Positions 11,595-63,257 of a stretch of 64,000 nt of DNA are shown one piece after another. Source of the DNA: a virus (taxonomy: Duplodnaviria; Caudoviricetes); the IMG/VR virus record IMGVR_UViG_3300005614_000001, positions 1 through 64,000 of that record; one strand, written 5' to 3'. The position numbers were made by a program, and so were the translations under genes. The notes beneath the pieces are model-generated. The model saw nothing but the letters and a program-made list of their open reading frames with translations. It ran no database searches and was not told the origin of the DNA. The stretch's first letter is position 1. Each line of letters begins with the position of its first letter.

Positions 11595-11622
11595 TTAGTT
11601 GAAAAAGTGGTAAATTTATATA

Positions 11623-12410: not shown

Positions 12411-12428
12411 TAACTATAAAATTTAAAC

Positions 12429-29328: not shown

Positions 29329-31550
29329 TAGTACTTTATTATACTTACTTTAAAACTGCCGGATGTGGGATCTAAAGCACCAGAGCTATAATTGTTAAAT
29401 CTTACTGTTACTGTATTTGCTGCACTAACCCAACAGCTAAAGCTACTATTGGATAATACACTACTATTTGGGACACCAACAGTAGGGATGTCTCCAACTG
29501 CTGCACCAGTTAATGTAATGGTTAAATCAGAAGATGTCTGTGCTGATGTAGAAGGGAAATCTAATGTTGATGTAGTTGTTAATACAGTTATATTTTCAAT
29601 TCTATGTGATGTGGTATTTTGGGCAGCTAAAGAATATCCACCTGAAGAATATGTTGGAATATTTACTATAACAGCACTATTCCCAACATACAAGGAACCT
29701 GTATCTGAGATATACCCAGTACTTTTAACATTTATTGTATCATCAGTAGTTAAAGCACTTCCTTTTATAAAGGATGCTCCTCCAGAATTAATAGCTATTG
29801 CATCATTCCCTAATTTGTTTTTTAATACCATAGCAGCAGAGCTATCTGAATTTAAAAAAACATAAAATGCTGATAAGTGTGTGGATGAAGTTCCAACTTG
29901 AAACCCTGATGTATTGGTAAACCCTTTTATTTGTAAAGATGAGAGATTTGATATCTTCCTATTGTATACTGCTATAGCAGTATCTTGGGCTATATAAGAT
30001 GCATATGTATTACTTACGATTGTATTAAAGGTATCTATAGTAAGTATTTGTTGTTGTTTATAAGAAGTGTCTATATTAATTGTTGCAGCCATTACTGCAT
30101 GACCTGCTGTATTAGGGTGAGTACTATCTCCAGAATTATATACAGGGAGCATACTATATAATGTTGTATTATCCCATAATGGAGTCCAGGTATCAATTAT
30201 ATGGTCTGTAGTAAAAGTTCTCTGTATATAATTTTTAAGAGGGCGTTCATCTGTTGCAGTACGTGGTGTTGGTAAAAGATGAATTACCGTGATACCAGCA
30301 TGTACAAGGGTATCGCGTAATGCATGATAATTAGCCTGCCATGTATTACTATCAACCTTGAATAAAATATCATTTCCTCCCATCATAATTAATGCATATT
30401 TTGGAGCAAGGTTTATCTTTTCTTTACAAGCTGCTAATGCCTGACCTACACCATCTGCACCACCTCCACTTATTATGTCTTTTGAATATCCGTTAAGCAA
30501 ATTTACAAAACGTGCATTAGTAGGAGCTGCTTGTCCTCCAGTTATACTATTTCCTATTACAATGGAATTAAGATTTTTAGGCTTTAGTATATAATATTTC
30601 CAGTTTATAAGTAGAGCATTTAGACCCAAATCTGACACACGAGGATTTGATGTATTATGCATTGCAAAAGGACTACCTGATGGAGAGGTTGGTTGAATAT
30701 AATTAATAGACCACTTTTTTGTTATATTAGTAATAGTGATTGTATACGTGGTTTCATACCTAAGAAGATCAAATCTCATAGTATCGCCTACACTATATGC
30801 AGTATCTGCTACACTTCCAAAAAATGTACTGTGACCCTCATTTATATCAAATGCAGGAAGTCCTGTAAAAATAGTTCCCTTATTACTAACATAGGTACCA
30901 TTTACAGTATGCTCATATCCAAATGGATTTATACTATGAAATCCTACCTGAATACCATAATCTGCAGTAGTTTTTCCTTGCCAAACAAAAGTTATAGATT
31001 GTACACACTTCTCTACCATTGTAGCAGTGTTATATTCTATGTAATCAGTATAAGTACCATTATTACCATTAAATAACAATCCATTTGCTGTAAATGTTCC
31101 ATGTGTCCCCACTAAAGTAAAACCTGCTGGGAGAGAACCCTGAAGGTTTGTATTAAATACTGTAAGTGTATCATAAAGAGGATATTCTATTTTGTTATTT
31201 AACGAAAGCTGCAACCTATTAGCAGTATCTGCTATATTTACTGAATTTTGAGTACTGTCTGCAATATATATTGGAATAGTTACATAATTACCAGCTATTG
31301 CAAACAATTTCCAACTACTACCATTCCAGAAATAAGGAAGCCCATTAGCAGAACTAAACCTAATCCTGGGAGTAGAAAGTGGAAGATTATCGTATAATCC
31401 GTTAGTGTCTAATGGAGAGAATGCAAGACTGCTATCTATCTTTATACGATTATATTCATTACCGTAGTTATGGGCATTATAATATGGTATCTGCCCAATA
31501 GCAGAAGTAAAAGGTATTAAAAGAGAAAGTATTAGAAATAATTTTTTCAT
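29328..31550 (-). CDS. signal-peptide-bearing fibre-like protein with SGNH/GDSL esterase domain
   Basis: Sec-type signal MKKLFLILSLLIPFTSAIG|Q. SGNH blocks GNSIT, GGND and DSTHP. N- and C-terminal domains shared with 31855..33033. Confidence 0.8.
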   Translation of the reverse strand: MKKLFLILSLLIPFTSAIGQIPYYNAHNYGNEYNRIKIDSSLAFSPLDTNGLYDNLPLSTPRIRFSSANGLPYFWNGSSWKLFAIAGNYVTIPIYIADSTQNSVNIADTANRLQLSLNNKIEYPLYDTLTVFNTNLQGSLPAGFTLVGTHGTFTANGLLFNGNNGTYTDYIEYNTATMVEKCVQSITFVWQGKTTADYGIQVGFHSINPFGYEHTVNGTYVSNKGTIFTGLPAFDINEGHSTFFGSVADTAYSVGDTMRFDLLRYETTYTITITNITKKWSINYIQPTSPSGSPFAMHNTSNPRVSDLGLNALLINWKYYILKPKNLNSIVIGNSITGGQAAPTNARFVNLLNGYSKDIISGGGADGVGQALAACKEKINLAPKYALIMMGGNDILFKVDSNTWQANYHALRDTLVHAGITVIHLLPTPRTATDERPLKNYIQRTFTTDHIIDTWTPLWDNTTLYSMLPVYNSGDSTHPNTAGHAVMAATINIDTSYKQQQILTIDTFNTIVSNTYASYIAQDTAIAVYNRKISNLSSLQIKGFTNTSGFQVGTSSTHLSAFYVFLNSDSSAAMVLKNKLGNDAIAINSGGASFIKGSALTTDDTINVKSTGYISDTGSLYVGNSAVIVNIPTYSSGGYSLAAQNTTSHRIENITVLTTTSTLDFPSTSAQTSSDLTITLTGAAVGDIPTVGVPNSSVLSNSSFSCWVSAANTVTVRFNNYSSGALDPTSGSFKVSIIKY

Positions 31551-33789: not shown

Positions 33790-36700
33790 TTAATGTGCTC
33801 TATTTTGTGTAGTGAACTTAATATTCATCTCTTTTGCAAAATCAGGAGATGCAAGGGCAGCATAGTTAATTAACTGATTTCCCAAAGGGAAGGATTTTAT
33901 CACATATTTCAACGGGTGAGCATTTGCTACCATTTTTTCTCCTTTAGTGGTATTCCCAAGTTCTTCTTCGGTAAGTCCAAAAGCATATCTCCCTAAATTA
34001 GAGAGTACATTTTCTGCATCAGTAACCACTCCAAATGCCGGGAGGATACTACCTCCAGCTACTTGCTGCCACTGCCAAGGATGATAATAAAAGGCCATTT
34101 CGTCTGATATTTTATCCAGCATCCTAACTCCATATATCCAATACCCTCTTTCTTCTTTAGTAGCTTCATCTGCATCCGGAATGAGGGCTTTTGCTGCCAG
34201 GAATGTAGAAAGTACCCCAATATAAGCTAATATATCCCTCATCTGTCCTCTTACATTATCCCTCATCAGATCATAGAAGTCATCTTTAGATATAGTGAGC
34301 TCCTTCCCGGTTTCTCTAAGGTATTGTTCTTTCTTCTTAGCCATAAATTCTTCCATCATCTTCAATCCTTGTTCATTACCAGCCATGATGTTTTTCATAT
34401 TCCCAATAATACGAAGAGGGTTTTGTACTAATATTTTCCCCACCATCCTCACCTTTCCATATTCATAGCTATCTGTACCAGGGATATACTTAAGACTTCC
34501 AAACCTGCTATCTGCTATAGGGACTATCCAGTTTTTAAAGGTCATCATCATCCTTGCCATAGTTCTCATAGAAGCTCTGCTCCTATCATCATCACTCATG
34601 GCACCAGTAGATTGCTTTTCTATCTGTTGTATTAACCCTCTGAGCTTCCCCATTTCCTTCCCATAAAGGTCCAGTCCATCTATCACCAGTTTATCATCTA
34701 CTATTTTAGCAAGTTTTGGGAGAGATTTTGTAGCCTTCAGGTCATCTATCTCTTTTTCCATTTTTTCTTCCAGCTCTCTATTTTGCCCAGGGGTACCGAA
34801 ATATCTTTGCCCTTCATACTTAGCCCTCACATACTGCCTGGTATTTTCTATCTTTCCATCTATAAGGACTGCATTATCCAACATGGCTATAGCTATGGGC
34901 TCCTGTACTAACTTATCACTATAACGGAATATAGAATATACAGCTTCACTCATGGAAGCATTTGCCACTTTAGATACAGATAGTTCTTTCTTTCTATCAG
35001 CAGCAGTTTGCTCTACAAATGGGACTATCTGGTTTAGAAGATAGGCATATACATTACCTTCTTTTCCTCTGAACATCCTGGTATCAGTCATTGCTTCTGC
35101 TTTCCTGAGATCTGCACCATCAAAGAAGGTTCTTTTATTTGTATAGTTCTGCAGCTTACCACCAATAAGGTTAGATAGTGGGATACCAATATTTAAAGCA
35201 AGGATCTTATTCTTATAAAACTGACTCACTCCTTCCAATAATCCATTTGCTGTAACTACTCTATCCTTCACATTTTCCGGGAGAAGTTGTGTACCCAGGG
35301 TCTTATTTATTGCTTTAAATACATTTTCAGTTCTCTCTCCAATTTTTCCTATAGTTTTCCCTTCCAGGATGTCATTTACATTCCTCTGCCCATAATATAT
35401 TCCCTGTACAAACTCATCCAGCATTTTAGCATTATATTCATTCTCGGGGGAGGTTTGTACCACACCATCCTTCCTCACTATCTTTCCAAACCTATTGGCC
35501 TGTATAGAAGATTTATTATGCTCTACATACTGCAGGGTTTTTACCAGATTCTCTATTCCAATTAGAGATTCATATCTTATAAGCTGTTCATTATAAGACT
35601 GTATTACAGAGAATAGATTAGTAGAGAATTGACTATCATCTTCTATTCCTCTATTGGAAGTAAAACTAAACGGGAGATGGTTTATCAATTTCCCGGTAAG
35701 GGGATCCTGGTATTGATAAGTATTTTCATTATCATTTATACTTATACCATTTATGAACCCATCTGCAATTTTTAAATTCCCCCCAAATGCTAATTTTTCA
35801 GCTACTCCACTTTTCATAACATATGGAAGAAAAGATCTCCTCACCTGTGGCTGAAGTATTCCAAGACTTACTCCTTTATCTACCCTCTCCTGGATATAGT
35901 TGTAGAAATCCAGTACTGGCTTATTCTCAGGGGATAAAAGCTGCTTATATTCATCAGTATGCCATTTATCTAAAGCAAATGATTTCATCTCATTATTTCC
36001 CCATCCAGGAGCCTTGTCATTAGAGAGATTGTATTTATCCTTTACTTTCTGTATTTCTTCATTTCTCCTCTTCTGGTTTTCTTCATCTACTGCATCATAG
36101 ATAGTGCTGTTTATAGCAGCTATTCTTTTTTGCTCTCTTTGGGCTATGTGTTCCCGGTATGCAGCAAGATTTATATTATCCTTATACCACTGGGTATTTT
36201 TATTCTCCTGGGCTTTTTTGAATTCTTTGAAAAAATCACTTTGTATAGTATCTATTCTTTGGTTTGTTTTCTCTCCCTTACTGTTCTTTTTGTACAGGAG
36301 GTCAAACATATTCTTTGGATTTAGCCCTCTGGCTTCACTCCATTTTAAATATTCTTCTCGGTGGTGAGCTACTATTTCCTTCTCTTTTTCCTTCAACAGC
36401 TCAGCCACCTGGAAGTTTGGATTGGTGAGTTTATATAAAGAATTAGCTGCAACAGTAGACCCTCTGCCCAATCCTCTAAACCAGTTCCCTATATTTTTAT
36501 TCTCTCTTTCTGCAGTTATAAGTCCACTTACTCCAAGTCTATCCCCAAGGAATTTATCAGCAAAATTGAATAAAGTATCATTCAAATCCTTTACAGCACT
36601 TCTTACATCTGAAGAAGTTACTTTCAAATCCTCCTGAACATCTTTATTTGTTGCTGCAGCATCTTTTAAGTGTACATCTATATCTTCATATGGAATATAC

Positions 36701-38664
36701 TTATCTAACAGATACAGGATCTTATGAGCATACAGGTTTAGACTTTCATCTGTTGGAGAAGTACTATCTACTCCTTCAAAAGTGTCTTTATAGGTATTCA
36801 CTATATCTTCTGCTTCTTTATTTAATATCTTTGCATAAGATAGTGTTGGAGAGATATTCTTCCTCACCTGAAGCTCTCTTATTGCCTTATATACAGATAG
36901 TAGTTGTTCTCTTTTCAGATGCTTTCTCCCTTCAGTTACCTTACTATCCTGGATATGACTATACAGGGCATTTAGTTTATCTATTTGCTTATCTATAGTC
37001 TCATCTCCTGTTCTTTCATCAACTGTTGGAACGGGGAGGAGATAGTCGTATTTCTCTAATGAAACATTTGCATCTCCGATCTTCACTCCATTTAAAGTAG
37101 CTTCTTTATCCTTAAAGGTAAAAGAGAACAGGATTGGGATAGCCCTTGTCATACCAAACTCCTTCACTCCATAAGCATCTTTTAATATCTTCTTATATTC
37201 TCCAATTTGTATATTGTAGGCTTCTTTCTTATAAGATGGAATGTCCTTATTCTTATTTATATCCAGGTTGACAAATTTCCAATCCAGGATATTAACCTTC
37301 CCATTAGGAGTGATAGCCATGAAATCTATAGTGCCAGCTTCATCTTTATTAGGATCATATACCGGAGTTTCTGTTAAAAATCTTGTACCTGCAGGAAAAG
37401 ACAGTAACCTTTGAGAAATGTTATCTTCTAACCCTTGATATATCCTTTCATCATTTGGAGAGAGTTGAGATACATCAGTTTTTTCTAATGGAGTGGTACG
37501 AAGAAAACCATTTTCATCTGTATACCTGGATATGATATCCTGTATATCAGCATGTCCTGCAGTACCTTTCTCTGCAAAGATATTAGCCTGACTACTCTGT
37601 TCTATATCACTTCCTGGAAATACCTTTCCATAATAAGCTTTTGCTTTATCAGTAACCCTATTCTTTACATCTACTCCATTTACCTGGTACTTCTTTCCGG
37701 TTTGGTCATAAGTTATCTTATTAGCCTGCTCCAGGATAGATTTATATACCCTTGTTTGTTCCGGGGAAAGATCTTCCTTTTCCTGCAGGGAATAAAAGCT
37801 ATCTCCTCCTCCATTTAAATCATCTACACTCCCTTCAAACCTATTATCCAATACTTGTTCTGCTACTTCTGTAAATGGATCAAACTTTCCTTTAATAAAT
37901 AAATTACGGAAGAACTCTTTTACTTTATCCCACCATGAGTCAGCTTTTGCAAGGAGTTCAGGGTTTTCTGTACCCCATTCATTCTTTTCAATAATGCGCT
38001 CTACCAGGAGTTTAGTCATAGCCTCCTCCTTTAACTTTATCACATCCAGGGTTCCATCTTCATTCCTGTAGGCTTTACCGTAAGTATCTACTGTAGATTT
38101 ATATATCTGATAACCCCCAATTTTATTTAACATCTCCTTATATAAAGGAGAGTTCTTATCTTTTAGAATTTGCACAGCTATATGCATCACTTCTTCAGCT
38201 TTAGCTATACTTTCTTTCCCTTCAGCTATATAAGCTATCCCCTTCACTGTATCTGCCAATCCTATAATAGCATCTCCTATATTCTCCCTGGATAACTTAA
38301 CCCCATTTATTACTAATTGTGATAGTGGTTTTAAATCTATTCCAACTCTTTTAGCAAACTCATCTATTTTCTTTAAAGTATCTTTATTGGCTTCAGAAGA
38401 TGGAACTGCAGATTTCTTAGATAGATAAGTGCCAGGAAGAGTTATCATTCCTAAAGTAGGCTCTCCTATTTCATTGAGTTCCCCTTTAAAAGAAGATGAC
38501 GAAGTAACCCAATCTCCCATCTTTTGTATATACTCCGGGGACAGAAGTTGTTTATATAATCTATCTGCTTCTTCCTCATTATTAGTGAGGGAGAATAGTT
38601 CACTCCATGTTCTTGAAGTCTCCTGCTTTCCTGTGATGGGGCTATTTATTAATCTACATGCCAT
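33790..38664 (-). CDS. large ejected/cargo protein with PD-(D/E)XK (RecB/Cas4-like) nuclease domain
   Basis: 1624 aa, directly downstream of the virion RNAP. KGTAGH, ET.VYD, AGTIDF, ILDWK and QIGEY motifs. Confidence 0.75.
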   Translation of the reverse strand: MACRLINSPITGKQETSRTWSELFSLTNNEEEADRLYKQLLSPEYIQKMGDWVTSSSSFKGELNEIGEPTLGMITLPGTYLSKKSAVPSSEANKDTLKKIDEFAKRVGIDLKPLSQLVINGVKLSRENIGDAIIGLADTVKGIAYIAEGKESIAKAEEVMHIAVQILKDKNSPLYKEMLNKIGGYQIYKSTVDTYGKAYRNEDGTLDVIKLKEEAMTKLLVERIIEKNEWGTENPELLAKADSWWDKVKEFFRNLFIKGKFDPFTEVAEQVLDNRFEGSVDDLNGGGDSFYSLQEKEDLSPEQTRVYKSILEQANKITYDQTGKKYQVNGVDVKNRVTDKAKAYYGKVFPGSDIEQSSQANIFAEKGTAGHADIQDIISRYTDENGFLRTTPLEKTDVSQLSPNDERIYQGLEDNISQRLLSFPAGTRFLTETPVYDPNKDEAGTIDFMAITPNGKVNILDWKFVNLDINKNKDIPSYKKEAYNIQIGEYKKILKDAYGVKEFGMTRAIPILFSFTFKDKEATLNGVKIGDANVSLEKYDYLLPVPTVDERTGDETIDKQIDKLNALYSHIQDSKVTEGRKHLKREQLLSVYKAIRELQVRKNISPTLSYAKILNKEAEDIVNTYKDTFEGVDSTSPTDESLNLYAHKILYLLDKYIPYEDIDVHLKDAAATNKDVQEDLKVTSSDVRSAVKDLNDTLFNFADKFLGDRLGVSGLITAERENKNIGNWFRGLGRGSTVAANSLYKLTNPNFQVAELLKEKEKEIVAHHREEYLKWSEARGLNPKNMFDLLYKKNSKGEKTNQRIDTIQSDFFKEFKKAQENKNTQWYKDNINLAAYREHIAQREQKRIAAINSTIYDAVDEENQKRRNEEIQKVKDKYNLSNDKAPGWGNNEMKSFALDKWHTDEYKQLLSPENKPVLDFYNYIQERVDKGVSLGILQPQVRRSFLPYVMKSGVAEKLAFGGNLKIADGFINGISINDNENTYQYQDPLTGKLINHLPFSFTSNRGIEDDSQFSTNLFSVIQSYNEQLIRYESLIGIENLVKTLQYVEHNKSSIQANRFGKIVRKDGVVQTSPENEYNAKMLDEFVQGIYYGQRNVNDILEGKTIGKIGERTENVFKAINKTLGTQLLPENVKDRVVTANGLLEGVSQFYKNKILALNIGIPLSNLIGGKLQNYTNKRTFFDGADLRKAEAMTDTRMFRGKEGNVYAYLLNQIVPFVEQTAADRKKELSVSKVANASMSEAVYSIFRYSDKLVQEPIAIAMLDNAVLIDGKIENTRQYVRAKYEGQRYFGTPGQNRELEEKMEKEIDDLKATKSLPKLAKIVDDKLVIDGLDLYGKEMGKLRGLIQQIEKQSTGAMSDDDRSRASMRTMARMMMTFKNWIVPIADSRFGSLKYIPGTDSYEYGKVRMVGKILVQNPLRIIGNMKNIMAGNEQGLKMMEEFMAKKKEQYLRETGKELTISKDDFYDLMRDNVRGQMRDILAYIGVLSTFLAAKALIPDADEATKEERGYWIYGVRMLDKISDEMAFYYHPWQWQQVAGGSILPAFGVVTDAENVLSNLGRYAFGLTEEELGNTTKGEKMVANAHPLKYVIKSFPLGNQLINYAALASPDFAKEMNIKFTTQNRAH

Positions 38665-38682: not shown

Positions 38683-41600
38683 TTAACAGTTTCCTTTAAC
38701 TAAGTTTAATGTCTTTTCTGCATTAGCAGATGTTATATTAGGTTTAAAAGTCTCAAAAGGAGCTCTCACTTTACTGGCTATTATTTCAGAAGTGTGAATA
38801 GCCCTTGGAAGATCTGAAGTTATTATCTGTGGAATATTAGTTCCCTTCAGTTCTTCCCCTACTTTTTGAGCTTGTTCTACTCCCTTCTTTGTAAGCTGTG
38901 TTTCTGAAGTTCGGAGTAGTCCCTTTACATTATCTTCTGTTTCTCCATGCCGGGCTACTAGTAAGATTCCATTATCACTTTTGTATTTAAACACATCTCC
39001 TGTATCTGTAGTGCCTGCAAGGTAGTAATTTATATCTATTTTATTATCATTTGTCTTCCCTTCTTTTATCCAGGAGTCAAGGATTTTAATAACAGAAGAA
39101 TGAGTTACTACCAGGGTATTATCTGGAGCAGTTTGTAACAACCCTCTAAAGGCATTAATTACCCTATCTTTAAATTCATTAAAGCTCTCTCCTCTATTCC
39201 CGCTATTCCCTTGTGGTTTTTCAGAAGAGTTTTTCACCAGATTATTCACAGTCTTTCTATCTGTACTTTCTGGCCTTCCTTCTAAATCTCCAATATCCCA
39301 TGCTTTAAAGTCCTGTGAAGGTTTTATGTAGCCTCCACTATTACTTTCTACCCTATCTCTGTTTACTATAGTTATTCCTTTAGCACTCCTGTAGGCATCC
39401 AGTATTTCCTGCTGAGGTATTTCCTGTATCTTCAGATACCCATTATCCAATACAGATTGTGAAGGAGTATCATAGAATTCCTGTGCCCTGCTTCCATCTC
39501 CCCATGCATTTACAGGAGTATAGATATAATAAGGAAAGTCTGCACTCCCTTCTTTCATCGGGGTACCACTTTCATCTTCCAGTCTTTGCAACAATATCTT
39601 CCCACCACTTACCCCATTATCTGCTTCTCTTTGATCTGCAAATAAGTTCATGGTAATAAACCTGGATGAAGAAGAGCCGGAAGCTGTATATAGTTTATAA
39701 GTATTGTTCCTTATATCGTTTACATTGTATTTTTCCCTCAACCCCTTCATCCATTCCGGATAGAGTCTTTTTTTACTTTCTCCCCTGTCATTAAAGTCTT
39801 CAGTTACATTTGGAACTATATCTGTATTACTCCAGCTATTTCTAAAAAACACCCCCAGGTCATTGAATGCAGATAAATTACTCATAGAGTCCATTTTATC
39901 TACTACTGGCTTTATTACTTTAGCATAATCTTCAGATGGGAGATATTTGAAGAATGATACTGGAGATGTACTTATTCCTGACTGTAAGAATGATAACCTT
40001 ACTAAATTGTAGTATAAATCCCTTGTTTGAGGATTATCCCTCAACTCCCTGAATGCCCCGGTATAGACATCTGAAGTAATGGCATCTGATACCTTAGAGG
40101 CGATAGTTACTCCCTTAGCTGCAGAGTTTTTATTCTTCAGAAGTGGAATAAGTTGCTGTAATACAGTATTGTTATACAGATCACTTCCTTTTGGGAGGCT
40201 ATTCTTTAAAGCAGCAAGTTCTGTAGCCACTGCAGTAGACTGGTCTACCATAAGCTCCTTCACTCTATTATTCAACCTGGAAGAGGTTTGAATAGCATAA
40301 GTCATGAAGTGTTCTTCAGCAGTACGTGCAGCCTTTCTATAATCATCTTTAGATAACCCTCTGGTTTCCAATAAGTTATCTAATACCGGAGCAAGGTAAG
40401 ATTTTATTTCAGGGTTTTCTATAGCTATCAGGGACTCAGATATTGCCTTAGATGAACTAGCTACTAGGGATTGTAAATTCCCAAGATGTGATTTATCTAA
40501 TAGGGTATCTACTGTATTCCAGATATTTGCCTCCCTGGCCTTATCTGTCTTGTATTGTTTCCTGTATTGCATAACAGGATCTCCACTGCTATCTGTATCA
40601 TAGTTAGTGCCTTGAGTAATATCAAACAGGTTTTGGGACATTACTCCATACTTCAAAAACTCTGAAAGTATTTGCTGCTGCTGGGTGTTTTCTTCCTGGT
40701 TTAATACCCCACCGGAATAGAAAGTTTCTATATTACTTTTTAATACAATATTAGATACATTTAAAGCAGAGGTTATCTTTCTGCTTCCTTTGGGGAATAG
40801 TTGTCTGATAGCTTCTACATTTCTATTATCATATAACCATGTAGTATTCTTCTTAGCCAGGAGCTTCATATATTCCCTTATAATAGGCTGGTTCATGAAA
40901 TACACCACTGTACTTGTAGGAGTGCCAGCTTTCTCTAGCATCAGGAAGGTACCAGTGAGGGATGGAGATTGTATGATCTGAGCTATGAACGGGTCTTTAG
41001 CTACATCTACAAATCCATTTATGTATTGTGATATCTTATCAGATATATACCTACCATCAACATCTTTATTATTGGAGAGAGTTGCTACATCTCTTCCATC
41101 TATAGATATACTATTATGCGGGAGAGCTATTTTTCCATCTCCTATGTACTCCTGCTGGTATTTTGGGAGAGAAGATGCTTTATCAATATCTAAATATATC
41201 TCTCCAAGCTGGTTGAGGGAATTATTAGTTTGAGCTACTGCTGCTATCCCAACTCCACCTTTCCCCATAATAAATGTATGTCTTGTATTGGACATATATA
41301 ATCTATTCAGTGGGGATCTGTCATCACTGCTACCAAATTCTTCAGGGGCAAGTTTTACTAGGTTATCCCTTAAACTCATTAACTCCTTACTGTTATTTGC
41401 AGCTATAAGACGTTCATAGTTTTCCGGGAGAAGGATAAGATCTTCCAGGGAGTTGAAATATTCATTCTCCAGGGATTTACTATACATATCCTCCACCTGT
41501 TTATTTAGCTTTTCTTCCTCCTGCAGGAAATCAAAGTCTGCAAGGGCATCAAATGCCTTCACTGCTTCTCCCGGGAGGAGGTTATCTATTAACTCTTCCT

Positions 41601-44600
41601 TACTATTTAATCCATTCAGAAGGTCCTTAAATTTAGATTTAGCCTCTTCCCCTGTTCCAAAATAAGGAATTTCAGCTATTTCTCCATCATTTGTTATATA
41701 AATATTCTTTAAATAAGTATTTAGTTTATCCACATCAAAATCCGAACCAGCCTTAGTGGTAATAGCTTCAGGCACTACTATACTATCTCCGGTCCATGAT
41801 GGAGTAAATGCTTTTACTGTAAATGCTTCTACTGAGTTCAGTTCCTGTGTAGGGATACGAAAACCAACACCATTAAGTATTTTCTTCCCGCTATCTGTAC
41901 TATTCAGATGTTCTATTAGTTCATCATCTGAAAGCTTAGATAATTTGTTATTGCTGCTTTTAAGTTTCTTTGCAAACCAATTAGGGAGCATTACTTCCAT
42001 CCTGGATACGGAAGTTCTCTTACCACTTTCATCATAGGTAGCTTCATAAAACTTCAATCCATTAGAAACATATATCAGGTTTCCTTTACTATCTTTTCCT
42101 GCTTCTACCCTCTTTCCTTTTACTTCAAATCCTACTCCGGATAACTGTATTTTCTGTCCACCATTTACTTTTGGTTTAGCTATCAGTTTATCTATATAAG
42201 AGAATAAGATACTCTTTATCTGGTTATAGTTTATAGCTGCTTCAAATGGAATGAGGAAATTACCTTCTTCATCTAACTGAAGTATATCCTTTAGGTTTTG
42301 TGGAGCTTCTCTTCTAAAGAGTTCATCTTGTAAAATAGCAGCTACCTTTGTTTTATCCGGGATGGAAAAGCTTTCTCCATCATCTACTATTCCAAACTTA
42401 CTTAGCAATTTATCATACCCGTTATTCTGCAGGTTTTGTAAAGCATCTATGTTTCTCCTCACCTTATCTCCCATCTCTTCACTAATTGGAGTACCTGCAT
42501 TATACAGGTTTACATAAGCAAGTTTAGATAACTGGCTACCAAGAGTTCCTTTATCTTTCTCTGCTCCTGTTTCTACCTGTATCCCATAATACCTGAAGGG
42601 AATATTTAACTTTGCACTTTCCTTGAATGGAGCATCAGAATAGATATCATCTTTATTATCATTTCCCTCTATTATCCCAATCTTTCTCCCGGATTCCACT
42701 ATTGCATATCCTACCCCTTCTTTATGCATTTTTACATAGATGCTCTCCAGGTTAGTTCCCCTTACCCTGGCATAGGAAAGTGGTGCAACTGAGGTTTTAT
42801 CCAGGAAGGTATTTCCATCCATAGTAAATCCACTACCTATAGGTTTTAAGATCTGCATTACTGCAACTTTTGGATCACCTTTCTTTAGAAGATTAGTGTC
42901 ATGTTCCTTTAGTTCGGGAGAAGAATAGATATAATGTCCGTCTTCAGCCATCAGGTTTCTATCCTGGGCCATAAGATATTGAAACTGCTGTTCTTGCTGT
43001 GTACTCCACCTTGCCCCTGATTTCCACATAATTTCCCTGTAAGCTGGAAGAGGGGTCCATGATTGAGCATCTGCACCATTAGAAGCCTCATAAGGAGAAC
43101 GTAATTCTTCAGGGAGGTGTTTATCTCCAGTAATAGATTTCTCTTCAGAAAGGATATCTGATAGAGAAACAGTAGGGATATAATCCTTATGTTCCCAATA
43201 CCCAGGATCTGTAGGGGAGAGCTTAATATTCCCGGCTTTATTTAACTCTTCATTTAATTTATTATTGAATTCAGGAGTGTTGTATACAGAAGTCTCTCTT
43301 GGAGAGAGGAAGGATTTATATCTTTTTAAAGGGTCTTTGATTCCTCCATAATCCCCAAAGAACAGCTTATGCATTTCTACATTGTTTATCATGTAGTTCA
43401 CTTCTGTGAAAGTAAATAGCTTCCTTAGTTCATTTTCTGTAAGGAGTTTTCCTTCATATCCCTCTATTCCATTAAGCTTATATTTTGTTACTGTTTCCCC
43501 GGTAGCATTCTTGGTAGTTTGCTCTGTTATGACATCATTCTTCTTCAGATAATCTGTTAGGTTAGAAACTCTTGTTTCTATATAATCCTTTAGCTTATCT
43601 GTATTTAATTCCTCTTGACTATAACTGTCAGTTATATCTGCCAGTAGCCCATCATACTTCTTCCCCTCTGCTTTTGTTTTACTATCTGCTATAGACTTTT
43701 CTGTCACATAGTAAGAAGAGAATATATTATTTATTCTGTTCCAGGCAATAGATGTATCAAAAGCAGAGAGTTCTATTGGATGTTCCATTTTAAGCATCCA
43801 TTCAGTTTTGCTATCTGCCGGGACTAATATATAGTAGTTCTTATTTAAGTTTTGGTTTAGTTCAGTAACTACCCTGGTAAGAGGATCTACTTTAGAGAGA
43901 GGCTTTACATCTCCTGTCTTTACATCTGCTATACCATCTATATAAGAAATGTCCAGGGTTTTGTCATTCTTTTCTCCATTTTCATCAAATAGGTTTTTCA
44001 AATACCAGCTATCCTGTGAATAGAGAGATAATAGGTGAGGAGTGCTATTTAAGAGTTCATCTTTATCTACTGCACTATTTATATCATTGGTGATATTAGA
44101 GATAGTATTATTCTGCAGGTATTGTTGTACTCTCTCTCCACTTACATTTGTAAATGTGCTCTCCCATCCTTCCCCTTTTGCTTTAGTGTATAGTTCAGCC
44201 AGCTTTTGGAAATTACCCTTTTCTCCCAGGTTAGAAATGTCCACACTTCCCTTCCTACTTAAGAAAGTTCTGATACTTCCAATAGTAGAAGACAAACTAT
44301 CTTTGTCTTTTTTGGATAAGTTAGAGAGCATAAAGGAATCAAATTCTACCCCTAAAGCAGAAAGTAAGCCACTATCTGTCTTTGGTACTGCTGCTCCATT
44401 AAAGTTATAATTCCCTTCTTTATCTACATTTACTATCTTCCCAGGTCCTGCATTTACCTTTAAGTTATCTATCCAGCTTTGTGACAGTACCCTTGCAGCA
44501 GTATTTAAATTAGCAGGAGCAGAGTAGGTTTTATCTCCATCTTTATATTGGATAACGGCCTCTGGCCTTTGTTTACTAAAGGTATTTAGCCATGAGACAG

Positions 44601-47600
44601 CCATTTTCCAGTCACTGATAGATAGATCAGAAAGAGAGGTATTAAATTTAAGCCTGTTTATAAGACGTACATAATCTGGGTTAGTATTAGCTACTTCTTT
44701 TAAAGCATCTATTTTCTGCTCCAGGGAGTTATATTTAAATACCTGGGAAAGGGTATAGTTCATAGATTTTGACATCTGTAATGCTTTTTGCATATAGATA
44801 TCTGTATCTACTTTACTAATTACCCCTGAAGGAGAGGTTTTATCAAACAGGGTTTCTGTAAGGGTTGCATACAGCATCTTTACCCTTGCTGGTGCATTCT
44901 TCTTAAAATCAAAGGTGAGGTAGTTCTGCAGGTAAGAGTCTGCACTCTTTCCTCCATCATAATTGCTCTCCTCTCCTTCTTTATCCTGTGTACTTATTCC
45001 TTCAAATACCCCTTCAGGATTTTCAATTATTTCTGTCAACCCTTCATTAGATAGCTTTACTACTACTCCAAAGGTGTTTAGGTATTCATTTGTAAGCTCT
45101 ACTGCAGTTCCCCAGTTATTAGATATATTATCCCACAGTGTAGAATAAGCTTTATATTGAAATTCATTTATATCTCCTCTCCTGTACATTTCCGGGATAG
45201 AGTCTGCTATTTCCCCTGTAGAGGTAAATGCCTGCTTCAGCCCTGCATACACTTTCTGGTATATCTGCTTGGGATCATAATTCCCTTCTTCCAGATCTAC
45301 TATATTCTTATTTTCCCTAAATACCTGCTGGAGTATCTCTACTGCATTTCCCCGAACAAAATTATATGAATTGCTTACAGATAGCCCAGGAATGGTCCTG
45401 TAATCCACTTCTCCATTATAAGCACTCTTAATAGGAGAGGTTTTATAATACCCTGAATTTATCCTTTTAAATAAAGAGTCTATGGTGTTAACAGATGGAG
45501 AGAATAATCTTTGTACAAAGTTTACTATATCCCTGAACAGCCTTTGAATGAAATTACCTGCAGGTTTCTGGTTCTGCAGTACATAATCCCTGAATTCTTC
45601 AGCTAACTGTTCCACTGTTTGTTTACCGGAAGCAGAGTTATATGTAGTAACTGTCCCGGTCTCCCTATCTATAAAGCTTCCCTCTCTTTGCTTAAATTCA
45701 GAGAGAATGGATTGCTTTTCTTTTAGATCAGTGAACATACTCCATACAGCATGAAAAGCCTCATGGTAAGTAGTTCCGGTTTCTGCATTCTGAGATACAA
45801 ATACTATAGCATCTTTAAACTGTCCATATGCATATCCACTCCCTGTAGTAGCTATTAAATTTTTAACTCTCTGGAATGGGATAGATGAAGAGATGTTATC
45901 TTTAAACCACTTTTCTTCTTTATCAAGATCTGCAGTAATAACTCCATACTTTTCCTTCACTATTCTGTAGTCAGAAGTAAACCTGCCAGAATTTGGGAGA
46001 GATGCTCCAACTTTAGTTTCCTTTGGAAGTTCTTTTTCTACTTTAGCTTCTTGTTCTACAGTCTGCTCTATCTTTGGGAGCTTTGAAGCAACTATGGACC
46101 TAAGTGTATCTAAAGCTTCTTCATCAGTTTTACCAAGACTCTTAAGATTAGTAACCAACCCATCTAAAGCTTCAGATTGAGGGAAGGCTATCAACCATCC
46201 TTCAGGGGTATTTTCAGCAGTATATTTTAACTCCCCAAACTTACTTGGGAATGTTTTTACTTCATTTATTACTTGTGTTTCAGGTACTCCGGGTACTTTA
46301 ATACCTGGTACAGAAGGTGATGGTGTACTTTCTTTACTTTGTACTTTTGGTTCTATTTCCTTTGGAGAGAATATAGTAGCCCCTTCCTGGTTAGTGGTGA
46401 GTACTGCTGATTTATAATAAAAGTTAGTATCTAAAGGGTTAGTTTTACTTACCTCTCTTATAGATGTAGTAAGTGGAATACTGTTTACATTCCTTGCAGT
46501 GCCTTTTAATTCTGAAGGATCATCTTCTAATAGATCATGGGTATCCGATATAAGAAAGTGCTGGTATGACTTCCAGGAGATAGTTTTTAACTTATCTCCA
46601 TCTACTCCAATTATCTCTTCAAATGGAAGACCATCTACCAGTTTCTTATTATTGATATTCTGGAAGGTATCCTTAAGATAATCTTTTATTTTCTGCTGGT
46701 TCTCTTCTATTCCCTTAGCAGAGAATGGAACTCCTTCAGTTCTATTTCCAAAATACAAAAACCCATCTTTTAAGTATACCTGATTAGAGCTGGTAGGTTT
46801 ACCTTGCTGAGGTTGGGTGAAATACAGCACTCCCTGCAGGTAGTTTTCTATCTGAGGGTCTATTTCTCCCTTATTCTGCTCACTCCGTACAGCCAGAAGA
46901 TGCAGATTATCATACAAATTATCCACTTCATGGGAAGAGAATTTTCTATTGTTTAACCATTGTAAAGTACTTCCATACTGTAATACTGGTCTGCCATTTG
47001 GAAAAGATATATTCTCTCCCTGGTGAGTGATAAAACCCTTTGTAACTACCTGTACTACTCCTTTCTTCCCTATATCTTTTTTATCAATAATAGATTTAGA
47101 TACAGGGGTTTGATAGAAGTTTCCTTCACTATCCTTACCATTATATTCTCCCCTTCCTCTCGTTACATAGAAAGAGTAGACATTATCTCCATCTCCGTGT
47201 TCCAGGATTTGGTTTCTCCTTTCTTCCCAGGCTTTACTATAAGCTACTGCTTCTTCCGGAGTACCTTGAGAATACCTTGTTTCATTTGGGGAAGTTCTCC
47301 AGGAGAGGTCTGCTGTAGGCATTACTCCATACACAGCATTTTCTATATTGGTTTGTTCGCCAACCCTTCCAATTCTCTTTCCATCTACTCCTACAAAATG
47401 GTTTTCTCCTCCAGTAGAGTCGATAAATACAGTAGCTATGATAGTAGATTTATCTCCATCAAATCCTTTTGCTACATCATCTATCAATCCCTTCAACCCT
47501 AAAGACTCTTCAGTCTTTTGAGTTACCAGGATGACCCTTATATTATCTTTATTCCCTATACTATTCAGTGCTGAGAAGAACTTCTGTTGTCTTTGTGTAT

Positions 47601-50600
47601 AGGGTTTATCATCCTTTCTATTATAAGTAGTGGATTTAAATAGAATAGGGAGGGGTTTCTTTTGAGTTTCAAAAGCCTTATCTGCAGGAGCTTCTTCATG
47701 TACATTATTTTCCCCTGTAGGAAATGAAGATGCGCTCTTGGAAGAAAGCTCCTTTAGGCTATCCTCCAGCTTTTTATTAAAGTCTGTCCTTTGTTTTACT
47801 ATCTCTGCTTCTGATAGAACAGGAGAGTAACTATCTAACACTCCAGGTTCTACTTCCTGAATGTTACCTGTAGCATCTTCTACCCTTATTTTTCCACTAT
47901 CTGTTTTTTCAAGTATTTTTAACTTAGAGAGTTTTTCAGCTTGTATGTTCTGATAGTCTTTTTGCTTATCAGCTTCACCCTTATCTGTAAAAGTTTCGAT
48001 AACATTCCCTGTAGGGGAAATAAGATTATATTTATCTCCATCTTGCTGTACTTTATATTCTCCCGGTGTTTCTGTTATATATTCTCTGTTTAATTCAAAT
48101 GGTTTACCATTTACTTCAACTGTCGGAGCAGTAGTATTATCAGTTTCTTTATTTTTTGTACTATCCGTATTATCTTCCCCAATAGAGAGAGAATTTCTCC
48201 ATTCATTGTAGTTCTTTACAAAGTCCTCATATCCTTCCTGGGTAAATAAATGATCAAAAGCTGCAGAAGCATATTTCTTTCCTTTATTTATCTGGTTAAT
48301 ATCATAACCCTTTTGTATAAGGTCTACTGTATGTTCTTTAGGAAAGGATATACTATCTAAGGTTCTTTGTTCTTCCGGAGTGCGGTTATTTAATTCAAAG
48401 TCTAAAAGGGATGGAAATAGCTTAGTATATTCTGCACTTTTGAAATCTGCAGACTTAGTGATGGAAGCTATCTTTTCAGAAAGAGTATTAAGGGTATTTA
48501 TCTGCTGCTGGGCTTTTATCCTATCATCTCCACTCACTAACTTTTCATCTATCTGCTTCTGCAGGTCTTCTGATTTATCTTTATATACTTCTCTTAAGTT
48601 ATTGAGCCCTGTAGGAGAGGTTAGTTTAGCTATTAATTCATTAGTGATGGCAGGGTGTATCTTAGTAATACCCCCTTGTATTTCCTGCAGCCTGTTATTA
48701 AAATCCTTCCCGTTATAAGATAACTTTACAAGAGATGATTTATAATCTTCAAATATATTGTATGCTTCATTACTCCTCGCCTGGTCTTCAGTTTTTGCAT
48801 TCCCAAAGTACTGGTAAGGATTTTGAAATATATTAGAAATGGCATCATGAGCATCTTTTATACTCTGTGCTTTCTGTATTAAAGCATCTATATACTGATG
48901 ATTGCTTGTTCTATCCCAATCCTTTATCCCAAATAAAGTATTGATTTCTGATTCCGGGAGTTCTTTTAAAAGTTTTAATTGTTCCAACCTTACTTCAAAC
49001 CTATTAGCTTTTATCCCACTATCTACAAAGTTAAAGAACTGGTCCTTCTGTAAATTCTTGAATTTAAATATATCATTATTTTTTACAGCATCAGCTATAT
49101 CAGTTTTAGCCTGTAGGGTAGACGCAGTAGCATCATAGTTATTTTCCATAACTCCCAGTACCCCTCTTGAGTTGAGGGAATTTACAGCATGGGCAGCAGC
49201 CTGTTCTGGGGTAAATACTCCAGCCCTTGCTTTCTGTATACTTTCTACCTTATGCTCTATAGGTCCAAATAATACCCCCGTTAGTCCACCAAGGAGCATA
49301 TTTTCATACCCCTCCTGAGTACCAAATTGCCCTATTAATCCCTGTCCTGTAGCCTGTATAATAGCATCTAAATCTCCTTTGGTCTTCTTGTTATATTTAT
49401 CTTCATAGTAATTCTGAGTACCAACCTGGGCAGCATACTGTCCACCTTCTTCATATACACCTTCTGCTAATATATTAGGAATGGCAGGTTTTACATACTT
49501 CTGAAATCTTGTTTCAGGGGTGAGTTTAAGTTTATCTATATCTGCTGCTGTTGATATTTTATCTGCTGCCAGTCCAATAGTACCAGCCTGTTCTTCTGTT
49601 GCTGCCTCTACTCCTGATTTAAGGCTTTGTTTAAAAGAGTTCCATGGTTTTAATATATGCTCAAACTGAATAGCATTGGATGCCATCAGAAGTGCCATAT
49701 TCACCCCATACCGAACATTACCAGAAGCTGTTGCAATTTTATCAATGTCTTCAAGGTCCTTCCCTGTAGGATTGTAACCGTTTTTTTCATAATAGCTTTG
49801 TATTAGGTCTTTTTTAACCTGCTCATATCCCTGCCTTGCTTCCATCCCTGCTTCAGCATGAGAGGCACCCCAAAGAGTAGAAAGGTATTCAGCACCCCTC
49901 CCTATTTTCTGCCCTGCAGCAATAGCAGAGAGTTGCTTCATAGAAGCTATAGACTGAGTAGATTGTTCTATTTCTGAAGTAGCCGCAAGAACTTTTTCCA
50001 GGTCATTTGTTCCTGTAAATGCTTTATTAAGCCATAGAGCTGCCTTCCCTACTTGTTCAGAGATGAGGGGAGCTTCTCCTATACCTTCACTTATTGCTCC
50101 TATAGTAACATCTGTGAGGGCAGCACTTCCTATTGCACCTATTGTAAAACCTGTATTCTTTAGTACCTTATCACTCCAGAAGTTTGCAGCACCACCAGAG
50201 AATGGAATAGCACTCAAAAATGGATGATCCTGTTCCCACTTGGTGTAATAGTTAGGGAATTTATCCTCCAGGTTTGTCTGCCAGTTATCTAAAGACTGTT
50301 CCCATGAGTTCTTATATACATTACCTCCGGACAATCCTCTTATAGTATCCGGGATAGCCAATAATCCATCAGCAAAAGCAGATACAGCTATAGCCCCTGT
50401 TTTAACAAGAGCATTACCAAATTTACTCCATGCAGATTGGTTTTTTGCAAAGTTCTCTTCATTGTCTACAAATGGATTAAAGTTATCTCCATATCTCCTT
50501 GTTTGATTCTCTGCAGTATATATTGGTTCATCTGCTGCATCCAACCCTGATTTATCCGGGATAGATGCCAGTATATCAGATGCCTTCATAGTGCGAAGAT

Positions 50601-50742
50601 CAACCGGAGGGGCTTGGTATACAGCAGGATTAGCTACAGATGGTACTATAGGGTCAGTTTGTGGTCTTGGTCCTGTACTAATATCTGAACTGAATACCGG
50701 AGTATTTTGTATTGGAGAAGTAGGGATAGTTGGATCTGGCAT
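38683..50742 (-). CDS. giant virion RNA polymerase (crAss-type) with zincin-like HExxH motif and C-terminal histidine-phosphatase domain
   Basis: 4019 aa. GFRIPTQ and catalytic GSDFDVDK (DFDVD at 41728-41742), HEAFH (45751-45765), RHGET (~38938-38952). Confidence 0.9.
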   Translation of the reverse strand: MPDPTIPTSPIQNTPVFSSDISTGPRPQTDPIVPSVANPAVYQAPPVDLRTMKASDILASIPDKSGLDAADEPIYTAENQTRRYGDNFNPFVDNEENFAKNQSAWSKFGNALVKTGAIAVSAFADGLLAIPDTIRGLSGGNVYKNSWEQSLDNWQTNLEDKFPNYYTKWEQDHPFLSAIPFSGGAANFWSDKVLKNTGFTIGAIGSAALTDVTIGAISEGIGEAPLISEQVGKAALWLNKAFTGTNDLEKVLAATSEIEQSTQSIASMKQLSAIAAGQKIGRGAEYLSTLWGASHAEAGMEARQGYEQVKKDLIQSYYEKNGYNPTGKDLEDIDKIATASGNVRYGVNMALLMASNAIQFEHILKPWNSFKQSLKSGVEAATEEQAGTIGLAADKISTAADIDKLKLTPETRFQKYVKPAIPNILAEGVYEEGGQYAAQVGTQNYYEDKYNKKTKGDLDAIIQATGQGLIGQFGTQEGYENMLLGGLTGVLFGPIEHKVESIQKARAGVFTPEQAAAHAVNSLNSRGVLGVMENNYDATASTLQAKTDIADAVKNNDIFKFKNLQKDQFFNFVDSGIKANRFEVRLEQLKLLKELPESEINTLFGIKDWDRTSNHQYIDALIQKAQSIKDAHDAISNIFQNPYQYFGNAKTEDQARSNEAYNIFEDYKSSLVKLSYNGKDFNNRLQEIQGGITKIHPAITNELIAKLTSPTGLNNLREVYKDKSEDLQKQIDEKLVSGDDRIKAQQQINTLNTLSEKIASITKSADFKSAEYTKLFPSLLDFELNNRTPEEQRTLDSISFPKEHTVDLIQKGYDINQINKGKKYASAAFDHLFTQEGYEDFVKNYNEWRNSLSIGEDNTDSTKNKETDNTTAPTVEVNGKPFELNREYITETPGEYKVQQDGDKYNLISPTGNVIETFTDKGEADKQKDYQNIQAEKLSKLKILEKTDSGKIRVEDATGNIQEVEPGVLDSYSPVLSEAEIVKQRTDFNKKLEDSLKELSSKSASSFPTGENNVHEEAPADKAFETQKKPLPILFKSTTYNRKDDKPYTQRQQKFFSALNSIGNKDNIRVILVTQKTEESLGLKGLIDDVAKGFDGDKSTIIATVFIDSTGGENHFVGVDGKRIGRVGEQTNIENAVYGVMPTADLSWRTSPNETRYSQGTPEEAVAYSKAWEERRNQILEHGDGDNVYSFYVTRGRGEYNGKDSEGNFYQTPVSKSIIDKKDIGKKGVVQVVTKGFITHQGENISFPNGRPVLQYGSTLQWLNNRKFSSHEVDNLYDNLHLLAVRSEQNKGEIDPQIENYLQGVLYFTQPQQGKPTSSNQVYLKDGFLYFGNRTEGVPFSAKGIEENQQKIKDYLKDTFQNINNKKLVDGLPFEEIIGVDGDKLKTISWKSYQHFLISDTHDLLEDDPSELKGTARNVNSIPLTTSIREVSKTNPLDTNFYYKSAVLTTNQEGATIFSPKEIEPKVQSKESTPSPSVPGIKVPGVPETQVINEVKTFPSKFGELKYTAENTPEGWLIAFPQSEALDGLVTNLKSLGKTDEEALDTLRSIVASKLPKIEQTVEQEAKVEKELPKETKVGASLPNSGRFTSDYRIVKEKYGVITADLDKEEKWFKDNISSSIPFQRVKNLIATTGSGYAYGQFKDAIVFVSQNAETGTTYHEAFHAVWSMFTDLKEKQSILSEFKQREGSFIDRETGTVTTYNSASGKQTVEQLAEEFRDYVLQNQKPAGNFIQRLFRDIVNFVQRLFSPSVNTIDSLFKRINSGYYKTSPIKSAYNGEVDYRTIPGLSVSNSYNFVRGNAVEILQQVFRENKNIVDLEEGNYDPKQIYQKVYAGLKQAFTSTGEIADSIPEMYRRGDINEFQYKAYSTLWDNISNNWGTAVELTNEYLNTFGVVVKLSNEGLTEIIENPEGVFEGISTQDKEGEESNYDGGKSADSYLQNYLTFDFKKNAPARVKMLYATLTETLFDKTSPSGVISKVDTDIYMQKALQMSKSMNYTLSQVFKYNSLEQKIDALKEVANTNPDYVRLINRLKFNTSLSDLSISDWKMAVSWLNTFSKQRPEAVIQYKDGDKTYSAPANLNTAARVLSQSWIDNLKVNAGPGKIVNVDKEGNYNFNGAAVPKTDSGLLSALGVEFDSFMLSNLSKKDKDSLSSTIGSIRTFLSRKGSVDISNLGEKGNFQKLAELYTKAKGEGWESTFTNVSGERVQQYLQNNTISNITNDINSAVDKDELLNSTPHLLSLYSQDSWYLKNLFDENGEKNDKTLDISYIDGIADVKTGDVKPLSKVDPLTRVVTELNQNLNKNYYILVPADSKTEWMLKMEHPIELSAFDTSIAWNRINNIFSSYYVTEKSIADSKTKAEGKKYDGLLADITDSYSQEELNTDKLKDYIETRVSNLTDYLKKNDVITEQTTKNATGETVTKYKLNGIEGYEGKLLTENELRKLFTFTEVNYMINNVEMHKLFFGDYGGIKDPLKRYKSFLSPRETSVYNTPEFNNKLNEELNKAGNIKLSPTDPGYWEHKDYIPTVSLSDILSEEKSITGDKHLPEELRSPYEASNGADAQSWTPLPAYREIMWKSGARWSTQQEQQFQYLMAQDRNLMAEDGHYIYSSPELKEHDTNLLKKGDPKVAVMQILKPIGSGFTMDGNTFLDKTSVAPLSYARVRGTNLESIYVKMHKEGVGYAIVESGRKIGIIEGNDNKDDIYSDAPFKESAKLNIPFRYYGIQVETGAEKDKGTLGSQLSKLAYVNLYNAGTPISEEMGDKVRRNIDALQNLQNNGYDKLLSKFGIVDDGESFSIPDKTKVAAILQDELFRREAPQNLKDILQLDEEGNFLIPFEAAINYNQIKSILFSYIDKLIAKPKVNGGQKIQLSGVGFEVKGKRVEAGKDSKGNLIYVSNGLKFYEATYDESGKRTSVSRMEVMLPNWFAKKLKSSNNKLSKLSDDELIEHLNSTDSGKKILNGVGFRIPTQELNSVEAFTVKAFTPSWTGDSIVVPEAITTKAGSDFDVDKLNTYLKNIYITNDGEIAEIPYFGTGEEAKSKFKDLLNGLNSKEELIDNLLPGEAVKAFDALADFDFLQEEEKLNKQVEDMYSKSLENEYFNSLEDLILLPENYERLIAANNSKELMSLRDNLVKLAPEEFGSSDDRSPLNRLYMSNTRHTFIMGKGGVGIAAVAQTNNSLNQLGEIYLDIDKASSLPKYQQEYIGDGKIALPHNSISIDGRDVATLSNNKDVDGRYISDKISQYINGFVDVAKDPFIAQIIQSPSLTGTFLMLEKAGTPTSTVVYFMNQPIIREYMKLLAKKNTTWLYDNRNVEAIRQLFPKGSRKITSALNVSNIVLKSNIETFYSGGVLNQEENTQQQQILSEFLKYGVMSQNLFDITQGTNYDTDSSGDPVMQYRKQYKTDKAREANIWNTVDTLLDKSHLGNLQSLVASSSKAISESLIAIENPEIKSYLAPVLDNLLETRGLSKDDYRKAARTAEEHFMTYAIQTSSRLNNRVKELMVDQSTAVATELAALKNSLPKGSDLYNNTVLQQLIPLLKNKNSAAKGVTIASKVSDAITSDVYTGAFRELRDNPQTRDLYYNLVRLSFLQSGISTSPVSFFKYLPSEDYAKVIKPVVDKMDSMSNLSAFNDLGVFFRNSWSNTDIVPNVTEDFNDRGESKKRLYPEWMKGLREKYNVNDIRNNTYKLYTASGSSSSRFITMNLFADQREADNGVSGGKILLQRLEDESGTPMKEGSADFPYYIYTPVNAWGDGSRAQEFYDTPSQSVLDNGYLKIQEIPQQEILDAYRSAKGITIVNRDRVESNSGGYIKPSQDFKAWDIGDLEGRPESTDRKTVNNLVKNSSEKPQGNSGNRGESFNEFKDRVINAFRGLLQTAPDNTLVVTHSSVIKILDSWIKEGKTNDNKIDINYYLAGTTDTGDVFKYKSDNGILLVARHGETEDNVKGLLRTSETQLTKKGVEQAQKVGEELKGTNIPQIITSDLPRAIHTSEIIASKVRAPFETFKPNITSANAEKTLNLVKGNC

Positions 50743-63217: not shown

Positions 63218-63257
63218 AGTGGAGTATAAAAGTATCCTCAAATATGAGGACAGTGAA

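Follow-up and report, generated by a model that had tools for sequence, protein, structure and literature searches.

Small branch-1 histidine phosphatases such as PhoE (YhfR) of Geobacillus stearothermophilus (1EBB, 1H2E) and CobC (6E4B, 3HJG) are free metabolic enzymes that share one fold and the motifs RHGET..N, SDL.RA..T, GES...R and V.H. Here we describe a phage domain of the same predicted fold and with the same motifs, located at the C-terminus of a 4019-aa protein (P0001) encoded in IMG/VR record IMGVR_UViG_3300005614_000001. The window, i.e. the whole stretch of DNA that was analysed, comprises the first 64 kb (positions 1 to 64,000) of this complete 116,928-bp virus record, which carries direct terminal repeats at its ends. 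PhoE and CobC are the best PDB matches of the phage domain by sequence (E 1.8e-10 to 5e-10) and are among the best by structure (Z 6.2-6.3). However, the region equivalent to canonical residues ~80-200 precedes that equivalent to ~1-70 in the phage domain, Ala or Thr takes the place of the catalytic Glu (E83), and the domain forms part of giant phage proteins. Among named phage families, PHROG 12933 comes closest; it carries the label 'unknown function' and has the halves in normal order.

The polymerase part of P0001 also has described counterparts. Like P0001, phi14:2 gp66 and phiCrAss001 gp47/gp49/gp50 have a two-barrel RNA polymerase core with a DFDxD motif, encoded within a tail/cargo gene block. 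A large gp66-type DFDxD protein was described as virion-packaged (bioRxiv 10.1101/2020.03.07.982082). The RNA-polymerase-associated proteins of phiCrAss001 were detected in virions and their ejection into the host was proposed, in a paper that never uses the word phosphatase (PMC10172136). The gp66 chain is 2194 aa long in the PDB entry, and its match to P0001 stops at residue 1672, with no phosphatase match; P0001, in contrast, is a single 4019-aa chain with a long N-terminal extension and a phosphatase. Polyvalent proteins, giant and multidomain, are presumed to enter the host together with the DNA (Iyer et al. 2017, PMC5512222). Carriers of the phosphatase module may be comparable, but most of these carriers have no other recognisable Pfam or PHROG domain. 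The polyvalent-protein survey mentions no phosphatase or phosphoglycerate-mutase-like domain (PMC5512222). The histidine phosphatase fold is a textbook one, and a natural circular permutant of it would be new to the literature searched: we found no report of a naturally permuted histidine phosphatase or phosphoglycerate mutase, nor of this phosphatase in crassvirus cargo or polyvalent proteins.

Order of the two halves

The domain and its parts are laid out as follows.

38767-39327, minus strand: whole swapped-order histidine phosphatase domain, residues 3806-3992 (Pfam, PhoE alignment, AlphaFold2, half-domain profiles)
38968-39327, minus strand: residues 3806-3925, the part of the domain that comes first and the counterpart of the canonical C-terminal half
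39277-39303, minus strand: motif AWDIGDLEG
39184-39192, minus strand: motif GES
39094-39114, minus strand: motif LVVTHSS
38767-38967, minus strand: residues 3926-3992, the part of the domain that comes second and the counterpart of the canonical N-terminal half
38938-38964, minus strand: motif LLVARHGET
38791-38817, minus strand: motif SDLPRAIHT
38686-38766, minus strand: C-terminal tail after the domain, 27 residues, unconserved and modelled with low confidence

In the first part lie the strand preceding WDIG, the motif GES, R3860, the strand LVVTHSS that carries H3881, and a conserved connector, W..G.P...Y...TG...K..NG, that ends in a hairpin. The second part contains the strand with R3931-H3932-G, followed by N3938, R3944 and SDLPRA with R3980. 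All motifs named in the original prediction were found at their predicted positions on the minus strand, in a single 4019-aa frame. Its central claim, that the C-terminal half precedes the N-terminal half, is borne out alike by Pfam profile positions, by alignment to PhoE and by hidden Markov model (HMM) searches of doubled sequences.

The last 252 residues of P0001 match Pfam His_Phos_1 (PF00300) with 107.8 bits (E 7e-31, cut-off 21.7), in two stretches: DNA 39327->39064 corresponds to profile positions 71-159 and DNA 38964->38749 to positions 1-73. The score above the cut-off, the RHG motif with its Arg, the second Arg and the second His are all as expected for the family; the order of the elements is not. 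Standard HMMs return two fragments, as had been foreseen. Since such annotation splits the domain into two partial matches, it is easily overlooked or called broken; in the ESM Atlas, the match is described only as 'histidine phosphatase family'. Alignment to PhoE (1EBB/1H2E) gives the same arrangement, with residues 46-128 of the 252-aa piece corresponding to PhoE 81-164 and residues 160-223 to PhoE 4-68.

A single match over the junction of a doubled sequence is the standard signature of circular permutation. Searched with an HMM of the swapped-order family, normal-order relatives give two partial matches. When their sequences are doubled head-to-tail, they give a single full-length match across the junction. 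For doubled P0104 the match spans HMM positions 7-187 and scores 144.6 bits, the sum of its two separate pieces; doubled P0108 and P0151 behave in the same way. With HMMER filters off, HMMs of the separate halves each match P0001 exactly once, the C-half at 3805-3925 (128 bits) and the N-half at 3928-3991 (105 bits); on neither side of the domain is there a trace of a second copy. We regard the permuted order as almost certainly real.

Predicted structure

An AlphaFold2 model built with a 27-sequence alignment of short family members has a mean predicted local distance difference test score (pLDDT) of 88.1 and a predicted template modelling score (pTM) of 0.82. The pLDDT is at least 90 in 175 of the 230 residues and falls to 56-72 in the last 30. 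From its start, the modelled chain forms a strand (17-20), helices 36-49 and 65-82, a strand (88-91) ending at the second His, and further helices. Strands 128-133 and 136-142 follow, the latter ending at RHG, and the chain closes with helices 147-151 and 163-175, strand 184-187 and helix 190-203. Strands 128-133 and 136-142 are neighbours in the chain and join the two halves; we read them as a hairpin. Given their adjacency, the canonical C-terminal strand would pass via a short turn straight into the canonical first strand. In the model the new chain ends fall where, in the canonical order, the helix that follows SDLPRA leads into the third strand.

We compared the model with known structures. 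With an exhaustive structure aligner, branch-1 histidine phosphatases fill the first 16 places (Z 5.4-6.9), aligned over their residues ~64-204. Model residues 136-204 superimpose on residues 1-70 of SixA and alr0221 with a root-mean-square deviation of 1.8-2.3 Å. At E<=0.001 Foldseek retrieved nothing from the PDB; a match of 67 columns to CobC 6E4B was all that it gave. We put this null down to the dependence of that aligner on chain order rather than to a new fold. The original prediction allowed that the two halves might not fold together, and the model indicates that they probably do: it is a single unit predicted with confidence (pLDDT 88, pTM 0.82), and P0001 has no duplication remnants flanking the domain.

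Conserved catalytic residues

Conservation was counted over 127 aligned swapped-order domains. The positions most relevant to catalysis are the following.

38947-38949, minus strand: H3932, predicted phospho-accepting nucleophile of RHG (His in 127 of 127)
39100-39102, minus strand: H3881, second catalytic His, in THS instead of the usual HG (His in 123 of 127)
39301-39303, minus strand: A3814, at the site of the canonical proton-donor Glu (PhoE E83), with Glu replaced

R3980, in SDLPRA, is kept throughout (127/127), and R3931 (126), R3944 (125), R3860 (124), N3938 (120) and E3852 (118) nearly so, while the C-terminal tail beyond the domain has no conservation in the family. Retention of both catalytic His and both Arg (H3932, H3881, R3931, R3980) had been predicted correctly. 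We conclude that phosphate binding and phospho-His formation are probably under strong selection. The position of A3814 opposite E83 follows from an ungapped alignment of KAWDIGDLEG to PhoE REIHLGDWEG. Candidate substitutes for the Glu are two acidic residues that are not invariant: D3816 (D 93, N 19, E 8) and D3937 (D 117).

The carrier protein and the wider family

P0001 starts with an N-terminal extension, continues with a two-barrel virion RNA polymerase core and ends with the swapped-order phosphatase. Features bearing on its identity are listed below.

38683-50742, minus strand: giant open reading frame P0001, 4019 aa, open without a stop in translation table 11
40867-43095, minus strand: RNA polymerase core at residues 2550-3292, with E 1.4e-19 in a phmmer search of the PDB
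41728-41742, minus strand: DFDVD metal-binding motif of the polymerase, residues 3001-3005
56776-62256, minus strand: 'virion structural protein' PHROG, upstream of P0001 on the same strand
62282-63241, minus strand: CrAss_Ring_1 tail ring protein gene, upstream of P0001 on the same strand

The polymerase core of P0001 is homologous to residues 951-1672 of phi14:2 gp66 (6VR4), and its metal motif is invariant as G..D.D.D in an alignment of ten giant relatives. In tblastn searches, the last 1000 residues of P0001 match crAss-like phages only, at 22-29% identity, among them cr108_1, cr4_1 and cr109_1. From the 6VR4 match, the DFDVD motif, the tail ring and structural neighbours and the crAss-like tblastn matches, the source is, on sequence grounds, a distant crassvirus and P0001 its predicted virion RNA polymerase. 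The position of the domain at residues 3806-3992 of 4019 agrees with the claimed fusion to the C-terminus of that polymerase.

We searched 1.84 billion cluster representatives with HMMER and found 330 matching proteins at E<=1e-10. Most of the best 150 matches are collinear with the query across both halves, in a single stretch. The two halves were scored separately on 153 representatives obtained by 50% clustering: in order, 135 are swapped, 13 normal and 5 incomplete, among proteins only 30-50% identical. The swapped order is a family trait and not a quirk of one gene. In IMG/VR, a degenerate DNA pattern for RHGETEDN identified 12 loci, of which eight are swapped, two normal and two unclassified (no C-half or no match); a related-locus search with the single domain returned three loci.

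The swapped form mostly lies inside phage proteins of 1000-5600 aa (carrier median 1830 aa, maximum 5655 aa), and stand-alone forms of 192-243 aa exist. A polymerase core is present in 16 of the 153 representatives, all supplied by crassviruses, which are among the most abundant phages; the other 137 have no polymerase similarity. The module is C-terminal in polymerase-bearing P0001, P0137, P0032, P0010 and P0062. In P0063 it lies 700 residues downstream of the polymerase motif. In P0042 (5655 aa) it occupies residues 3279-3502, 25 residues after DxDxD and within the polymerase core region, and in P0002, P0013, P0015, P0048, P0097, P0113, P0115, P0126 and P0140 it is far upstream of the core. 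The size of the family, the variable position of the module in its carriers and the prevalence of carriers without RNA polymerase had been missed in the original prediction.

Domains sharing a chain with the module in relatives are Zeta_toxin, Kinase-PolyVal, ParB_N with ddrB-ParB, and NUDIX, and such partners are typical of injected polyvalent proteins. We compared 28 mid-sized carriers with Pfam and PHROGs; 26 have no further match beside the phosphatase, one has Kinase-PolyVal and one a ParB C-terminal domain. In most carriers of 1000-5600 aa the module is the only recognisable enzyme domain, and hence one of few handles on their role inside the host. The variable position relative to the polymerase, together with the many polymerase-free carriers, fits a self-contained cargo or polyvalent-protein module rather than a working part of the transcription machinery. 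We infer that the module is independent of the polymerase.

Normal-order relatives and origin of the permutation

The closest normal-order relatives are also phage proteins, mostly free-standing and of ~200 aa. This sister group includes P0104, P0108, P0141, P0145, P0151 and a gene at 9731-10333 (plus strand) of an unrelated 38-kb virus contig (L003), which encodes a 200-aa phosphatase of PHROG 12933. With the portal gene (7212-9110) before it and the major head gene (11491-12519) after it, the L003 gene has a position associated with head or internal proteins. Upstream there is also a GroEL-like gene. The sisters share the signature of the swapped clade: Thr at the Glu site, 'TWD/NxG', GESFN.FK.R, and a THS-type strand followed by W.K.G.P..D..ID. 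The Glu site in the 13 normal-order proteins is occupied by Thr in 11 and Pro in two, and never by Glu. Hence the Glu replacement appears to be older than the permutation.

For a tree, the halves were aligned separately and concatenated (155 rows, 188 columns), and a quick maximum-likelihood tree was computed; it is unrooted, as GpmB was left out as an outgroup because its coverage of the C-half is too low. In this tree, the 13 normal-order proteins form one side of a branch, beside the swapped-order clade. Two further proteins of normal order that are fused to NUDIX, P0035 and P0060, fall inside the swapped clade next to P0020 (Shimodaira-Hasegawa-like approximate likelihood ratio test support 95). 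Both have a vestige of the connector just upstream of RHG, in addition to a full connector after the second-His strand. A second event of duplication and trimming may have restored the normal order in these two, which we take as a lead and not as a result. Such an apparent reversal would support tandem duplication as the mechanism of the original permutation. With a normal-order sister group and two apparent reversals, the family offers a worked natural example of permutation.

Proposed function and alternatives

Overall, we suggest, at somewhat better than even odds, that the permuted branch-1 phosphatase domain is carried as a cargo module and acts early in infection as a phosphomonoesterase. 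Residues 3806-3992 are a genuine circular permutant of a small PhoE/CobC/GpmB-like domain. As modelled, the chain runs from the canonical third strand through the GES/R helix and the second-His strand to the canonical C-terminal strand, then over the short conserved 'NG' hairpin into the canonical first strand with RHG, and stops after the SDLPRA helix. The predicted fold is a single unit, and it retains the phosphate-binding and nucleophile set (R3931, H3932, R3980, H3881, N3938, R3944, R3860). The module belongs to a large phage-specific clade. It would be built into virion-packed proteins, here the crassvirus virion RNA polymerase, that reach the host as cargo together with the DNA or before it. 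Most likely it would act during the first minutes of infection, with H3932 accepting the phosphoryl group of a substrate and water taking it up from there. Without the Glu, it would probably rely on substrates with a good leaving group, on another acid (D3816 or D3937, both mostly conserved) or on slow chemistry.

Packaging of P0001 in the virion and its delivery to the host appear likely to us: the polymerase homology, the cargo-gene context, the virion proteins of phiCrAss001 and the sister gene placed between portal and head genes together make host delivery reasonable to infer.

Several observations weigh against this proposal. Judged from the alignment, P0001 does not have the proton-donor Glu of the branch-1 superfamily, and the site is Thr in 104, Ala in 17 and Ser in three of the 127 aligned domains. 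In other branch-1 enzymes, Glu replacement strongly cuts activity. The structural matches per half are middling (Z<7). None of the NCBIfam equivalogs reaches its cut-off, so that they offer no specific substrate clue; the CobC alpha-ribazole phosphatase model (TIGR03162) is nearest with 76.7 against a cut-off of 162.9 bits, and SixA (TIGR00249) scores 27.2 against 74.5 bits. The swapped order itself lowers these scores. Packaging and ejection of P0001 are predictions from homology to crassvirus cargo proteins. Finally, tblastn against 50,697 GenBank phage records returned only normal-order N-half matches and no swapped form. With no cultured phage among these records carrying the swapped form, no experimental system is at hand.

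Thr or Ala at the Glu site across the clade suggests chemistry that is probably adapted or slow. Thus, while the domain described in the original prediction as 'permuted, probably active' is permuted, 'probably active' is less safe than it was made to appear, because the Glu, whose replacement had gone unnoticed, is Ala here and Thr in most relatives. In our view the chemistry would differ from that of the textbook enzyme, and catalytic activity is plausible, with the balance tipping slightly in its favour, but not assured.

The same residue data bear on the possibility that the domain is a pseudoenzyme. In that case turnover would have been lost with the Glu, leaving a binder of phosphate or phospho-ligands or a structural module, which may sequester a host phospho-molecule or aid packing. 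Such a loss would agree with the Glu site, which holds Thr, Ala or Ser in 124 of the 127 domains and either Thr or Pro in the normal-order sisters, and with the Ser that replaces the usual Gly after the second His. However, the nucleophile His is kept in every aligned domain and the second His in 123, despite identities of only 30-50%, and the match to His_Phos_1 is as strong as 107.8 bits. Purifying selection of this kind on the nucleophile is not expected of a mere binder, and we consider a pseudoenzyme improbable.

About equally improbable, in our estimate, is that the domain cooperates with the fused RNA polymerase, by trimming 5' triphosphates of early transcripts or by dephosphorylating a nucleotide, an initiating substrate or the polymerase itself. 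Module and polymerase do share a polypeptide in 16 representatives, in P0042 at a distance of just 25 residues past the catalytic DxDxD, and two normal-order members nested in the clade (P0035, P0060) are NUDIX fusions, NUDIX being the fold to which RNA 5'-end pyrophosphohydrolases belong. Yet 137 of the 153 carriers have no polymerase similarity, the position of the module relative to the core is not conserved, and there are stand-alone forms of 192-243 aa. An independent module fits these facts better than a part of the transcription machinery.

A more specific version of early action has, in our view, rather less than a one-in-six chance of being correct: the swapped clade, with Thr for Glu, might be a dedicated injected counter-defence or takeover enzyme that removes a high-energy or unusual phosphate. 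Its substrate could, speculatively, be an immune nucleotide bearing a phosphate, host RNA with its 5' triphosphate or a host signalling protein carrying phospho-His or phospho-Asp. Equally speculative are the substrates named in the original prediction, namely immune nucleotides, host phosphoproteins and nucleic acid ends. The enzyme would act in the first minutes, before any phage gene expression, and the permutation would have become fixed since it would let the domain thread the tail and refold within the cargo.

It is very unlikely, and already largely refuted, that the halves are separate entities, whether as decayed leftovers of a tandem duplication, as partial domains completed between subunits or as an assembly artefact. 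A duplication origin is plausible, and the connector vestige in the normal-order P0035 and P0060 inside the swapped clade speaks for it. However, P0001 has exactly one C-half and one N-half with no remnant even with all HMMER filters off, and 135 independent cluster representatives, drawn from different sources, share the order and the conserved connector. Moreover, the model is compact and forms a single domain (pTM 0.82), and the genome record is complete at 116,928 bp with direct terminal repeats.

Gene neighbourhood and other observations

The structural genes of the window form a minus-strand block from ~17.7 to 63.7 kb. Four large genes around P0001 have no Pfam or PHROG match.

33790-38664, minus strand: 1624-aa protein
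50746-53292, minus strand: 848-aa protein
53379-55352, minus strand: 657-aa protein
55362-56768, minus strand: 468-aa protein

By their position, these are presumably further cargo or tail proteins.

Within P0001, the features recognised are the polymerase, the phosphatase and an HExxH motif only. The last of these, a zincin-type motif (YHEAFH; window 45751-45765, minus strand; residues 1660-1664), lies in the N-terminal extension and has no Pfam match. It recurs in P0032 (YHEAWH) and P0105 (YHEAFH). The motif may belong to a metallopeptidase domain with a role in processing this giant protein.

We found no tRNA genes in the 64-kb window. A GDSL-like lipase/acylhydrolase domain (residues 331-486) lies in a 740-aa protein encoded at 29328-31550 (minus strand), which may be a tail enzyme for deacetylating or cleaving a polymer on the host surface. 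A plus-strand block from 1 to 17 kb contains endonuclease, exonuclease VIII-like, UvsX-like recombinase and peptidase genes.

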